Virus record (IMG/VR): IMGVR_UViG_3300036783_000180 | Location: 32,001-96,000 of that record | Length of the DNA: 64,000 bases | Direction: 5' to 3' (one strand) | Origin: a virus | Lineage: Duplodnaviria; Caudoviricetes | Part shown: positions 13,330-64,000 of the stretch, one piece after another | Layout: each line of letters opens with the position of its first letter | Numbering within the stretch: the first letter of the stretch is position 1 | Notes under the pieces: model-generated | The model's input: the letters and a program-made list of their open reading frames with translations, nothing else | Databases searched by the model: none | What the model was told of the DNA's origin: nothing | Made by a program: the position numbers and the translations under genes

Positions 13330-14916
13330 TCAGAATAACATTTCTAATGTTTTCATACTATTAAAGGAACCATTAACTGTAGCTCGTAGTCTAACACCTA
13401 TTATATCATTAGGTATATCTTTTACGACTCCTTCAGAGCGTTCTTTTACTGAAATGTTTTGTATTTTACCGAGTAATACTTCTTCCTTTGTTTCAGTCCT
13501 AATGCCATACACTTCAATTTCTGTTGTACCGTCATTGTTAGAATCGAACGATATTTTGTAGTCGTTACCTGTTGCACGTTGTGCAGTAGCTTTTCTAGGG
13601 ATACGAGGAAATGCATGTTCAGTCACTTGTACAACTTCAGCAGGTTTGTCGATTTCTTGGTCAAATGTATAACCAGAGTCCATTTTGAAACCACCATCTG
13701 TATGAACAAATCGATTTCTATCATAGAAGAAGTTACGAGTGTAGTATCCATCTGTATCGTATTTATCTAAAAGAGAACTACCCATCCATAAATGTTCCGC
13801 CCGTCCAATAGTCACCTTACTGATTTTTGCGGTATCTAGATTACGAACTGTCTCCACTACAGGTATCACTTGTCTACCTTTCACACTAGTGCCGATTAAT
13901 AAAGGTTCACGAAGTGCCTTAATGAACGTAACTTTCCTCTTATCTTGGAATTTACCTCTTTCCAATACAGGGAGATGAATTATTTTTCCAGCTTTAAACA
14001 CTACAGGTATTGGATCATTCCGAACAATATCGAAGAATACATTATAATCTGTACCCGCTTGCTTTGCTTCGTCTAGTAAGAATAGCAACATATTTAATCG
14101 CATCTTATCTTTAATTAAATTTTCCGGAAGTGTAGCGATAAACTTAGAAGGAGATAGCCATAAATTATCGTAGTACTTTCTCTTAGCTGGAGACAACGAC
14201 TTAGAATACATATCTTGAATAGCGAAAGTTTCCCAACCGATTGCCTTACTAATACCTTCCGATATTTCTCTAATTGTTAGATTACTATTCAACGCATAAT
14301 CTAAGCCTTCCAAATAATCTCTATACTTATGTTTAGGGACTAAGGCACCTACTTGTACATCGTATTCAGTTCCCCAATTCTTCTCTAGCAAACGCTCGTC
14401 TATTTTAATATGCATAGCATGCAAATGAGTCCGAACTCGTTCATGCTGCATCATAAACTCAGGCATTAAGTATAGTCTATTATCTCGAATGAAATAATGT
14501 TCATATAACTTAAGTGGTTCTTTCGCTGTAAAAGTCGGTTTCAATACCATAGAAACGATTGTTGCGTTACGTAAATTCGGGTCATTGAACTCGAATGTTG
14601 TAAATCTACCTTGCCGATCTAACGTATTTACCACTTCTTCAAATTCTAACTCACGAAGCAAGAAAGCCTCGTGAGTTGAATAAACACAATCAGTAATTTC
14701 GATTTTTGCATATGGAAGAGTGTACAAAGTATGCGCAGTCGGCAAGTTAGTATTAGCCATCGTGTAGCGATATTCGTATTCTACATACTCTAGAATCTTC
14801 TTATAAATCCCTAACATTTCAGCCAATCTAGGATTCTCAGGCATGTATGTTTTATAGAAGGAAGACATTTGCCATAACGTATCGTCTACGTCGTATGGTT
14901 TCTTCATACTACTCAC
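13330..14916 (-). CDS. baseplate wedge subunit
   Basis: follows the J-like gene; AKQAGT resembles the KPAG motif of gpI/gp7-type wedges. Confidence 0.55.
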   Translation of the reverse strand: MSSMKKPYDVDDTLWQMSSFYKTYMPENPRLAEMLGIYKKILEYVEYEYRYTMANTNLPTAHTLYTLPYAKIEITDCVYSTHEAFLLRELEFEEVVNTLDRQGRFTTFEFNDPNLRNATIVSMVLKPTFTAKEPLKLYEHYFIRDNRLYLMPEFMMQHERVRTHLHAMHIKIDERLLEKNWGTEYDVQVGALVPKHKYRDYLEGLDYALNSNLTIREISEGISKAIGWETFAIQDMYSKSLSPAKRKYYDNLWLSPSKFIATLPENLIKDKMRLNMLLFLLDEAKQAGTDYNVFFDIVRNDPIPVVFKAGKIIHLPVLERGKFQDKRKVTFIKALREPLLIGTSVKGRQVIPVVETVRNLDTAKISKVTIGRAEHLWMGSSLLDKYDTDGYYTRNFFYDRNRFVHTDGGFKMDSGYTFDQEIDKPAEVVQVTEHAFPRIPRKATAQRATGNDYKISFDSNNDGTTEIEVYGIRTETKEEVLLGKIQNISVKERSEGVVKDIPNDIIGVRLRATVNGSFNSMKTLEMLF

Positions 14917-37639: not shown

Positions 37640-38845
37640 TTAATGTTTGTTTAATTCTCGTGCTGCTTCGCCGATAGTTTGTCCTCGTTTGGATAAACCT
37701 CTCTCGACTGGCGCTGCATAAGAATCGAATCCATTACTATTATAATCTACTAAAATGTCCAAACTTGCAAGCCCTTCTTCTTGATTCTTCGCTTGTTTGA
37801 TTAACATATTGTAAAGATTTAATACATCTTCACTAGCAGTTTTCAATTCACCCAAACGTTCGTCATATTGAGATTGCTTAATCATGCCCAATTCTAGCAT
37901 ATCGCCGATCATATCGAAAGCTACTTTTTCGCGCTCTTTTGTAAAGACTGATTCTTTATAAGAAGAAAATTCAGAAGCAGTTTTATCTAATTCTCTTCGA
38001 ACACTAGATAATTCACTTTGCACTTCCGCAGTCTTCTTACGCTCATAAGAAGCTTCCTTTCGCAATAGTTGATTCTCATTTGTTAAGCTACCAATCTCAG
38101 CAGCACTCTTTTCTAGACTGTCTTCGAGTTGGGCAATCTTGTTCATTGAAGCTTGTTTGTCCATCTCTAAAGACAAAATTTCCTCTTCTAATATACCACG
38201 AACTTCCATACCGTTGCCATTACTTTCCGCAACTTTCGTCGTTCCTGATTCCTCTTCCTCTTTTCCATACATCTTTTCACCGACATATGCAGTAGCTAAG
38301 AATGGAGATACAACCTTTGTTGTATTCGTAACAGGTCCCATTAATGAAGGTCTTCTATCTTGACCACCCGAACCTTCAAATAACTGACTCACGCTACCAT
38401 CAGGGTTAACTTTTTCACCAACTGCAACACCTCGCCCTGCTTCTCCCGTAGGAGTCGAGAAGAACTTACCCCTTGCGGTTTCAGGTGTTTTACCCGCTAA
38501 CTTTTTACCCGCCCAAGTATCAGCGGCTACTGTTTTTTCTTTTAAATACGCCATACCGTCTTTTGCTTTTTGACTGATTTTATCACCTTTAGGAAGAAAT
38601 TTTAAAGCGCCCATACCTGCATCTAGTACAAGTCCATTCGACTCTCTATCCAATTCTTCCCTCTGTATTTTTTTTATTTTTTCTGCATCATACATTCGAA
38701 CAGGACCATTCACTGCGCCTAACTCTCGTCCGTTGTTCATAACGAATTTACCCATATTCTTACCACGACTAGCCCCGCCAAAAAGCTTTCCGAAGAAAGC
38801 TTTTTTTTCTAAAAAGGCTTGGCCGCTTAAGTCTACATTACTCAT
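37640..38845 (-). CDS. scaffold/head-internal protein with KxA repeats
   Basis: C-terminal coiled coil; about 11 KxA motifs; upstream of decoration and MCP genes. Confidence 0.65.
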   Translation of the reverse strand: MSNVDLSGQAFLEKKAFFGKLFGGASRGKNMGKFVMNNGRELGAVNGPVRMYDAEKIKKIQREELDRESNGLVLDAGMGALKFLPKGDKISQKAKDGMAYLKEKTVAADTWAGKKLAGKTPETARGKFFSTPTGEAGRGVAVGEKVNPDGSVSQLFEGSGGQDRRPSLMGPVTNTTKVVSPFLATAYVGEKMYGKEEEESGTTKVAESNGNGMEVRGILEEEILSLEMDKQASMNKIAQLEDSLEKSAAEIGSLTNENQLLRKEASYERKKTAEVQSELSSVRRELDKTASEFSSYKESVFTKEREKVAFDMIGDMLELGMIKQSQYDERLGELKTASEDVLNLYNMLIKQAKNQEEGLASLDILVDYNSNGFDSYAAPVERGLSKRGQTIGEAARELNKH

Positions 38846-62526: not shown

Positions 62527-62865
62527 TCATCTAAACAAATATAGACAAACCATCCCGATCGATAATGCCAATCCCATTAGATTACAGAAGATTAAAATGG
62601 CTACCCAACGTACAAGACGTTTAATCCTTGTATCTTGAAGTAAATTAACTTCCCTTTGCCCTTGAAAATTCTCGTGCAACATATCATACTCACGAGACAA
62701 AGCTTTTATCCCACTTCTGTTCTTTTCTAATTCAGAATGGACCGTTTGGAATTGCCCAATTGCCCAATCCTCATGTTTTTTTAAATCTCGTTTTGTCATC
62801 TTTTTCTCTAACGTTTCTACAACAGCTACATTCTGCGGTGCGCGTTTTTCTAAAACAGTAGTCAC
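62527..62865 (-). CDS. coiled-coil protein with C-terminal TM anchor
   Basis: AGGAGTG SD, GTG start; WVAILIFCNLMGLALSIGMVCLYLF. Confidence 0.7.
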   Translation of the reverse strand: MTTVLEKRAPQNVAVVETLEKKMTKRDLKKHEDWAIGQFQTVHSELEKNRSGIKALSREYDMLHENFQGQREVNLLQDTRIKRLVRWVAILIFCNLMGLALSIGMVCLYLFR

Positions 62866-62869
62866 TTTA

Positions 62870-62923
62870 ATTCACTCCTAACATGATATTTGATAGCTAA
62901 ATTATATCATCTTTAGAATGAAT
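62870..62923 (-). promoter_or_regulatory. extended -10 TGATATAAT inside SD-occluding hairpin
   Basis: ATTCATTCTAA/TTAGGAGTGAAT plus ATGATAT/ATATCAT on - strand. Confidence 0.6.
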
Positions 62924-62938
62924 AACATTGTTAAAATC

Positions 62939-63212
62939 TTACTTTTTAGGGCCGTAAGGTACAACTTCAAAATCTTTTCGGAATTTTGTCTCAATTTCTT
63001 CTCTAATACTTTTAGGTGCATAATACCATTCTACTTCTTCATCCTTATATCTTTTTTTCGAGTTCCTTATCAGTCATCGCACCAACAATTTTTGTAATAG
63101 TTCCATTAGCCGCCCCTGGTCTTTCGAAAGCAGCTCTAAAATTGATTCCCTCACATGGAGAACTACATGGTTTCCCATTTTGATAGATTACATACACTTC
63201 TTCTCTTGCCAT
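62939..63212 (-). pseudogene. frameshifted hypothetical gene (or sequencing error) at an A7 run
   Basis: 274 nt = 3n+1; removing one A at 63052-58 gives a 90-aa ORF ending FEVVPYGPKK. Confidence 0.65.
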
Positions 63213-63233
63213 AACTTTCCCCTTTCTAAACGC

Positions 63234-63263
63234 AAAAACCACACAGGATAATCCCATGTGGTT
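63234..63263 (-). terminator. intrinsic terminator
   Basis: AACCACATGGGA-TTA-TCCTGTGTGGTT plus T run; GU pairs work only on - strand. Confidence 0.7.
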
Positions 63264-63947
63264 GATACGGTTCAGTAGATGTTATATTCGTTCAGAATAT
63301 TATTTGTTTTGTATTGAAATTAGTAAAAGTCACGGGCTTTCCACACCACATAACCTTGTGTCGCAATGTATGATCTCACTCTTACATTGCTTTGAAAACA
63401 TGAAATCGAAAAAAACATACGTGAGACATATAGACTTGGAATAGTTTTATGATTTTTATTGTCACAAAAGTTCCGTATACGTCTGTATTACTACGTAAAC
63501 AAAGGCAATCGATATCTGGGGATATACATTTTTATTTGTTTACGCAATGCTTAGTTATCAGTTATCTGGATTCATGACAATCCTCACGCAATTACAAAAG
63601 CAAAAGTCCAGTTGAACAAGTCATGTGTCCATGACTCATATCGTAGAATGGTAGACGACTCATCATTCATTTCACACACTAGTAATATGCAATAAACAAT
63701 GTCTTTTGTAATTACCCTTAAAAGGTCATGATGTGAGTTATCAAATGTATTGATAACTCACATCATGACGGAAACTGTTGGGAGTCAGTTTCCGACTGAT
63801 GATGATAGGCTGTTTCAATTTTACAAAGATAACCTTTTCCGCAAATTACCTTTGAAGCATAAAGATAAATAAAACACATTTTATTTTTTTTACAAACTAA
63901 CTAGTCAAATCGGCTTGTATTTCAAGTCGGCAAGAAGCTAACCTGTT
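63234..63947 (-). ncRNA. candidate large structured non-coding RNA (~715 nt)
   Basis: bounded by promoter and terminator; no credible ORF; at least 8 helices, some nested. Confidence 0.5.
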
Positions 63948-63954
63948 GAAACAA

Positions 63955-63983
63955 AGTATACTATACAATCAAGTTCAAGGCAA
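63955..63983 (-). promoter_or_regulatory. sigma-A promoter TTGCCT-17-TATACT
   Basis: near-consensus hexamers with 17-bp spacing. Confidence 0.7.
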
Positions 63984-64000
63984 TAGCGAATTTAAAAGTT

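Follow-up and report, generated by a model that had tools for sequence, protein, structure and literature searches.

A probable stand-alone structured RNA gene of about 715 nt in an uncultured 175-kb phage

The 64,000-nucleotide (nt) stretch of DNA analyzed here (the window) corresponds to bases 32001-96000 of the IMG/VR virus record IMGVR_UViG_3300036783_000180, a 175,348-bp Caudoviricetes genome that is complete according to CheckV and has a GC content of 36.9%. Close to the end of the window, on the minus strand, a gap of ~760 nt extends from the stop codon (TGA, 63975-63977) of a gene for an 87-amino-acid (aa) protein to the start codon (ATG, 63212) of the next gene, and this gap, together with the structured non-coding RNA (ncRNA) predicted from it, is the subject of the present report. 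The longest open reading frame (ORF) within the gap encodes 42 aa on the plus strand and 38 aa on the minus strand, and there are only six ORF-free gaps of at least 300 nt in the whole 175-kb genome. The first-pass annotation of the window, made from the letters of the sequence, had described about 700 nt devoid of a credible ORF; indeed, no ORF in the gap exceeds 42 aa and none is conserved among the homologues described below. The gap is a real feature, beyond what chance would produce. The RNA unit sits within a block of small genes, behind a host-type promoter, and comprises, together with the gene that follows it, the following elements (window coordinates; A6 denotes the alignment of six homologous sequences introduced below):

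63978-63983, minus strand: -35 element TTGCCT, found by consensus scan; identical in all six homologues, including synonymous positions (A6 columns 3-8)
63955-63960, minus strand: -10 element TATACT, found by consensus scan (A6 columns 19-31)
63231-63948, minus strand: predicted RNA of ~715 nt, its 5' end (± 3 nt) set by the position of the -10 box and its 3' end by the terminator U-run
63231-63269, minus strand: intrinsic terminator with a stem of 12-16 bp and a U-run, found by scan and in the consensus fold; present in all six homologues, with five pairs changed on both sides
62905-63212, minus strand: downstream gene, 101 aa in relatives, with a purine-rich ribosome-binding site and an ATG ~20 nt past the terminator

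Relatives of the locus were reached through both flanking genes and through sequence motifs. Protein clusters of the 87-aa protein at 93% and 69% identity led to contigs L003, L004 and L005, which carry the same gap; a motif scan returned a 174,193-bp IMG/VR genome (L006 = G001) with the same gene order; and searching from the 101-aa protein on the other side added two contigs, one of 108 kb from Logan (L010) and one from JGI (L011). With the window, these make six distinct sequences, all located between the 87-aa and 101-aa genes, which fall into clade A (the window, L003/L004 and L010) and clade B (L005, L006 and L011) and which together constitute A6. The collection of homologues that had been proposed as a check on the initial prediction thus yielded five further distinct members in the same syntenic slot. 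The sources of the sequences include soil (probably the sample of the window itself), food-fermentation metatranscriptomes and a tick metatranscriptome. Among the relatives, the RNA measures 708-791 nt, and both complete genomes contain exactly one match to a covariance model built from its core domain (R1, 38 bp). Between the clades, identity is 63-75% for the individual blocks (5' domain, hairpins, core and 3' domain) and 74-77% once these are pooled and realigned, compared with 63-69% at the nucleotide level for four flanking genes. The gap is missing after the 87-aa gene in the distant members L007 and L009; the RNA is therefore restricted to the present clade.

The sigma-A-type promoter originally read at 63983-63955 on the minus strand (TTGCCT-17-TATACT) was returned by a consensus scan and is near-invariant in the six homologues. 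It should be noted that the scan alone is not significant (19 promoter-like sites vs 17.9 expected). The -35 element extends over the L-P-stop end of the 87-aa reading frame, in which the synonymous sites of the final three codons are invariant; furthermore, the promoter block is 90-97% identical in every homologue pair. Directly before the -10 element stands a T-R-T-A-G block, which we take to resemble the TRTG '-16 region' of Firmicute sigma-A promoters, and within the spacer, variation is limited to one W and to the R of this block. When used as a DNA pattern, the promoter motif had no match in viral or metagenome contigs. At the other end, the terminator proposed at the outset, a hairpin at 63263-63237 (minus strand) followed by a U-run, turned out to be the sole terminator-like site that the consensus scan detects in 4 kb, and it covaries in all six sequences.

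The RNAalifold consensus of five sequences contains 211 pairs, 39 of which have changed on both sides with pairing kept, whereas that of six sequences contains 168 pairs, 37 of them with such double changes. In an independent count, 91.6% of cells pair and double changes occur in 40 of the 211 consensus pairs; helices 8 (the 8-bp hairpin 63770-63793), 9 (a 20-bp hairpin), 13 (in the core) and 23 (in the 3' domain) of the consensus have 100% of their cells paired. By contrast, sliding the 3' partner by one to three columns left only 4-10 double-change pairs, and none of 500 column shuffles reached the observed values. The covariation looked for among homologues as a check on the first prediction is therefore strong (37-40 double-change pairs vs 4-10 in the slid controls), and it is strand-specific. 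Consensus pairs include 111 G.U cells vs 7 A.C cells, and in each of the six homologues antisense folding is 34-58 kcal/mol less favorable than sense folding. Because G.U is kept, A.C is nearly absent and the sense strand folds better, selection acts on the minus-strand RNA rather than on DNA palindromes. Collectively, the locus combines compensatory changes, a strand-specific fold and the absence of a conserved ORF, the features by which a structured ncRNA is generally recognized, and we are highly confident that it is a real structured RNA gene.

Thermodynamic predictions for the individual sequence point in the same direction. The minimum free energy (MFE) of the 722-nt minus-strand RNA is -211.1 kcal/mol, compared with -148.6 ± 5.4 kcal/mol for dinucleotide shuffles (z = -11.6), and the corresponding values for the plus strand are -179.7 kcal/mol and z = -6.8. 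The 200-nt segment at 63701, which includes a 20-bp hairpin, ranks second in fold stability among 1168 segments of the genome, both strands pooled. The helices listed in the first-pass annotation fared unequally. The exact inverted repeats of 20 bp (63725-44/63750-69), 11 bp (63590-600/63703-13) and 10 bp (63494-503/63535-44) all lie where they had been placed, and the helices 63770-77/63786-93 (8 bp), 63616-25/63630-39 and 63363-73/63380-90 recur in both the MFE and consensus folds with compensatory changes. By contrast, the 7-bp helix 63458-64/63575-81 and the 6-bp helix 63284-89/63295-300 fall in segments that are not conserved between the clades, and comparison lends them no support.

The consensus folds divide the RNA into the following parts, listed from 5' to 3':

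63806-63954, minus strand: 5' domain of four hairpins, from the consensus folds
63923-63945, 63891-63919, 63867-63886 and 63828-63850, minus strand: hairpins of the 5' domain, the third invariant and all A-U, the fourth with a conserved GGAAAAG loop
63770-63793, minus strand: 8-bp hairpin GGAAACUG/CAGUUUCC, with four of eight pairs changed on both sides and 100% of cells paired
63725-63769, minus strand: perfect 20-bp hairpin, with three double-change pairs, other changes only to G.U, and the lower 10 bp invariant
63589-63714, minus strand: core domain, closed by a 12-bp long-range helix (63703-63714/63589-63600) with four covarying pairs
63663-63699 and 63616-63639, minus strand: hairpins inside the core, the second with two covarying pairs, accompanied by an invariant junction
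63678-63683, minus strand: loop palindrome ACUAGU in a 7-nt hairpin loop (GCUAGC in clade B)
63645-63654, minus strand: invariant junction CUACCAUUCU, inside a ~17-nt block that varies at one position (CUACCAUUCUNCGAUAUG), is mostly unpaired and runs into the next helix
63392-63558, minus strand: variable domain, with 92-94% identity within clade A and ~32%, the random level, between clades
63327-63390, minus strand: 3' domain of two hairpins with two covarying pairs each
63363-63390 and 63327-63356, minus strand: hairpins of the 3' domain, with an invariant GUAAGAGUGAG apex and a UGGAAAG loop, respectively
63310-63317, minus strand: invariant UCAAUACA after the 3' hairpins

Comparison gives the best support to the 8-bp hairpin, the 20-bp hairpin, the long-range helix of the core, hairpin 63616-63639, the two 3' hairpins and the terminator. 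Several finer features of this map deserve comment. The 5' domain may be closed by a UUUCAA/UUGAAA helix (63946-63951 with 63813-63818), which is invariant and uncertain. In the core, the outer positions of the loop palindrome change together from ACUAGU to GCUAGC, such that the palindrome is kept through a double change, marking it as a candidate self-complementary kissing loop or, alternatively, as the closing pair of a CUAG tetraloop. The junction sequence CAUUCU might form a 6-bp tertiary contact with AGAGUG in the invariant loop of the 3' hairpin, a match seen by eye. The variable domain is 50-80 nt longer in clade B, where it has helices of its own, and the central ~170 nt are unalignable across clades. 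A candidate long-range helix (A6 columns 269-276/725-732) would link the 3' domain with the stretch that follows the 20-bp hairpin; it includes two covarying pairs and conflicts with local helices. The apical loop of the 20-bp hairpin (63745-63749, minus strand) reads UACAU in the window, L010 and L006 have the exact reverse complement of this, AUGUA, and the remaining sequences have GUGUA or GUAUA. The difference bears the signature of loop inversion in a long palindrome and suggests that the loop sequence itself is not under selection. GGA occurs in three of the conserved loops, at about the frequency expected from base composition by a rough estimate, and the idea of a CsrA-type sponge was dropped.

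We consider it reasonably probable that the locus is a stand-alone, multi-domain structured ncRNA gene of ~715 nt, the founding member of a small family of 708-791-nt RNAs present in one copy per genome. The overall proposal of the first-pass annotation, a structured ncRNA of this size with its own promoter and terminator and without an assignable family, is borne out by the homologue and covariation results above and by the Rfam comparison given below. In such a scenario, host sigma-A RNA polymerase would start at TTGCCT-17-TATACT and most transcripts would stop at the intrinsic terminator, with read-through presumably feeding the downstream 101-aa gene. The transcript would fold, as the comparison of the six homologues supports, into the 5' four-hairpin domain, two tandem hairpins, the core closed at long range, the variable domain and the two-hairpin 3' domain. 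Its place in a small-gene block and its host-type promoter hint at action early in infection, and the RNA would be produced early, be stable and serve a structural role in trans, as ROOL, GOLLD and the abundant long non-coding RNAs (lncRNAs) of Kayvirus may do; a trans-acting, stand-alone mode of action is, on balance, what we expect. Reverse complements of the invariant segments gave one 10-mer match in the phage genome when searched as antisense targets, which is about the chance level.

Self-assembling ornate RNAs of the ROOL, GOLLD and OLE kind form homo-oligomers through kissing loops and A-minor contacts. In OLE and GOLLD, a palindrome that covaries has been taken as an argument for symmetric kissing loops (PMC12286853), and self-association of the present RNA through its palindromic loop is possible. 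That the RNA is self-assembling is a tentative suggestion, which we consider rather unlikely. By the same token, it is conceivable, if rather unlikely, that a new class of self-assembling RNA-only particles, dimers or higher oligomers, is formed via the palindromic and invariant loops, with the clade-specific middle domain acting as a disordered or cargo-facing linker, and that these particles are made early in infection and have no link to tRNA genes.

The RNA libraries add a hint of expression. In the tick metatranscriptome, a single 529-nt contig lies wholly inside the RNA (63274-63806) and is the sole contig on a 3.8-kb stretch, which is a weak indication of expression. A contig from a food-fermentation metatranscriptome covers the RNA and neighboring genes, and in another run a single contig of higher depth links the 3' half of the RNA to the downstream gene, although depth in such contigs cannot rank genes and the parts they leave uncovered are not evidence.

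A number of considerations weigh against the interpretation of the locus as a stand-alone RNA resembling the known large phage RNAs. The comparison involves only six sequences in two clades, and many of the double changes amount to one clade split counted repeatedly; moreover, the consensus structure was taken from the same alignment on which covariation was counted. The RNA evidence consists of assembled contigs rather than raw reads, and such contigs provide no transcript ends, strand or level; they may also include DNA, and one of them spans flanking genes as well. The predicted closing helix of the 5' domain requires a 5' end a few nucleotides upstream of the start implied by the -10 element, and the change in the loop palindrome is equally well explained by an intramolecular pair closing a CUAG tetraloop. 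ROOL and GOLLD usually adjoin tRNA genes, as do the Kayvirus lncRNAs, whereas ARAGORN finds none in the window or in the whole 175-kb genome. Finally, ~20 nt separate the terminator from the start of the 101-aa gene, for which we saw no separate conserved promoter, an arrangement that would suit a leader equally well.

The last point calls for a closer look at the downstream gene. In the window, it is split into 55 aa and a remainder by one extra A in an A-run at ~63050-63056 (seven A residues vs six). It is intact, at 100-101 aa, in L003/L004, L010, L006 and L011, and L005 ends before the gene. RNA-library contigs of relatives do not have the extra A (L001:1353); it reflects either missequencing of the homopolymer or a true site of frameshifting or slippage. 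AlphaFold models the 101-aa protein with a pLDDT of 74, Foldseek returned nothing from the PDB at E <= 0.001, and the best VIA-align Z score, 4.2, is below the level that is meaningful for helical proteins; these results speak neither for nor against the protein as a partner of the RNA. A perfect extended -10 element, TGATATAAT, lies at window positions 62901-62909 (minus strand), directly upstream of a 112-aa gene; thus, the genes past the 101-aa gene have a promoter of their own, independent of read-through from the RNA unit.

We observe no promoter-like site that both clades have kept in the interval from the RNA promoter to the 101-aa gene. This gene must therefore be fed by read-through, and the entire transcribed region might be its long cis-acting 5' leader, one that sets passage through the terminator by attenuation, by a ligand- or factor-responsive switch or by processive antitermination. 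The invariable co-occurrence of the RNA with the 101-aa gene, of which only five protein clusters exist, and the high-depth metatranscriptome contig joining the two would fit such a leader, which the first-pass annotation had also entertained. However, inspection of A6 revealed no antiterminator that competes with the terminator and is conserved in both clades, a length of 700-790 nt with ~20 helices far exceeds that of known attenuators, the window has an intact RNA next to a frameshifted copy of the gene, and nucleotide identity is higher for the RNA (74-77%) than for the gene under its supposed control (62.7-63.4%). We regard a leader as unlikely, though it is the main rival reading. Even less probable, in our view, is that the transcript is a precursor cut by RNase III at the 20-bp hairpin into a ~180-nt 5' RNA and a ~480-nt 3' RNA, or into smaller sRNAs. 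RNase III is known to cut long perfect stems in early transcripts of phages such as T7 and SP82, the uninterrupted 20-bp duplex with its invariant lower 10 bp is kept in all six homologues and represents a plausible RNase III-type processing site, and the tick RNA contig starts just 5' of the hairpin pair that includes it. Contig ends are not RNA ends, however, and the candidate long-range pairing between A6 columns 269-276 and 725-732, with its two covarying pairs, suggests an integrated fold.

We consider each of two further alternatives very improbable. One is a DNA-level element, such as a replication origin or control region, a packaging site or an array of protein-binding palindromes. 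The region is AT-rich (31-37% GC) with many inverted repeats, and the plus strand, too, folds better than its shuffles. Nevertheless, the changes within helices go to minus-strand G.U and rarely to A.C, a bias that only RNA pairing accounts for, and there are no direct-repeat iterons in the region and no local turn of GC skew. These observations, together with a better origin candidate ~37 kb away, disfavor the replication-control region that had been listed among the initial alternatives. That candidate, at genome positions 132,422-133,353 (L012:2422-3353), spans 932 nt without an ORF and contains four exact copies of GGACA-N3-GGAC in the same orientation (0.01 expected) and, by eye, degenerate copies of the repeat around an alternating A/T palindrome of ~50 nt; the repeat motif is absent from the 64-kb window. 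From its sequence, this region looks like an origin of the iteron and AT-rich type and is a much better candidate for that role than the RNA gap. The other alternative is that the gap contains the decayed remains of a coding sequence or several genes for small proteins. Both strands do have short ORFs (20-62 aa), and one stretch of 25-30 aa is ~50% identical between the clades, but this similarity overlies the invariant 3' hairpins, where a 2-nt indel shifts the conserved GUGUGGAAAGC into different frames in each clade. Furthermore, ORFs of at least 20 aa differ in start, end and length in every homologue, no Shine-Dalgarno sequence precedes them, indels across homologues are not multiples of three, and compensatory base-pair changes are unexpected in a decayed gene.

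The RNA gene belongs to a group of uncultured ~175-kb phages that are distantly Herelleviridae-like. The phages with the closest UvsW-like helicases are, among named ones, Bacillus and Staphylococcus phages, mostly of the Herelleviridae, and because these nearest relatives, at only ~28% identity, infect Bacillus and Staphylococcus, the host is probably a Bacillota species. The upstream 87-aa protein (L001:2276-2539, minus strand; gene end at window position 63975) is assigned to PHROG 3915 and has no Pfam match; its family is large, with 466 representative clusters at E <= 0.001, and some members are fused into longer proteins. No RNA-related function emerged from Pfam or PHROGs for the proteins neighboring the RNA. 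Broader searches for related loci were largely negative. Distant-mode blastn of the region against 50,697 GenBank phages gave no match, nor did tblastn of a 401-aa head-module protein and the 238-aa neighbor, a search that may leave out near relatives, and single flanking proteins searched in viral contigs retrieved no related loci. Scans with the junction and 3'-domain motifs returned the L006 contig only and nothing in metagenome or genome contigs. The palindrome pattern of the hairpin base lacked specificity, with matches at 13 viral loci and at more than 120 genome loci; covariance model R1 recognized none of the 18 loci on which it was run, and the nhmmer profile none of 132.

To our knowledge, large and intricately folded ncRNAs are rare, and those of phages, including ROOL, GOLLD and the Kayvirus lncRNAs, are still without an assigned function. 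As the first-pass annotation had anticipated, the present RNA cannot be placed in an existing family: an Rfam 15 cmscan of the whole window at gathering scores gave no match among 4227 families, self-splicing introns and small ribozymes included, and a permissive scan of 62800-64000 (E up to 10) produced only chance rows of the miRNA and snoRNA type, with no ROOL, GOLLD or OLE. In general character, it is nonetheless like ROOL (RF03087) and GOLLD (RF01998), being phage-borne and 0.6-0.8 kb in size, with many helices and no known protein partner. Both of these phage RNAs assemble into cages made of RNA only, usually adjoin tRNA genes and contain poorly conserved internal segments (PMC12286853). 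The variable internal segment of the present RNA is thus a shared trait, ROOL having a disordered linker and GOLLD a variable 5' region. Palindromic or kissing loops are important in those RNAs (PMC12286853), and the present RNA keeps one loop palindrome through a double change. It differs from both in having no covariance-model match and an unrelated sequence and helix layout.

The two lncRNAs of the Kayvirus phages K and vB_SauM-515A1 (Staphylococcus) measure 0.5-1.1 kb and are abundant; Kayvirus lncRNAs of 0.5-0.6 kb reach ~10% of phage reads, and lncRNA2 possesses its own promoter of the typical early kind (PMC7698491, PMC9241854). Like the present RNA, lncRNA1 and lncRNA2 are intergenic minus-strand RNAs of large Bacillota myoviruses, one of them with its own early sigma-70-type promoter; unlike it, their expression has been measured, whereas the present RNA is known from a predicted, near-invariant promoter and from contigs. 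Comparison of the phage K regions 13595-14229 and 37679-38832 with the present RNA (blastn, word size 7) gave only chance matches of <=21 nt with E > 1, an nhmmer profile of A6 had no match in the phage K lncRNA loci, and covariance model R1 had none there or in the whole phage K record. The phage K lncRNA regions themselves (NC_005880.2; L015:1096-1730 and L016:680-1833) have no Rfam 15 match, only the neighboring tRNAs matching.

OLE dimerizes via a symmetric palindromic kissing loop whose palindrome covaries (PMC12286853). The present RNA shares with OLE (RF01071) the large size (~600 nt in the bacterial OLE) and a multi-domain architecture, and differs from it in lacking an OLE covariance-model match. 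Moreover, OLE is encoded on the chromosomes of extremophilic Bacillota, not by phages, and has partner proteins dedicated to it. The pRNA of phi29, an early phage RNA with its own promoter that multimerizes by loop-loop pairing, is only ~174 nt long and confined to phi29-like podoviruses; its size and architecture are unrelated to those of the present RNA, and it, too, has no Rfam match in the window. What emerges is another phage RNA family of the size of ROOL and GOLLD, unrelated to them in sequence, with comparative support and a predicted promoter and terminator, which is not tied to tRNA genes and widens the range of phage lineages known to invest in large structured RNAs. It also offers a compact and well-bounded target for in vitro transcription, chemical probing and cryo-EM. 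In general type, the RNA most resembles ROOL, GOLLD and the Kayvirus lncRNAs, is a member of none of these and represents a new family.
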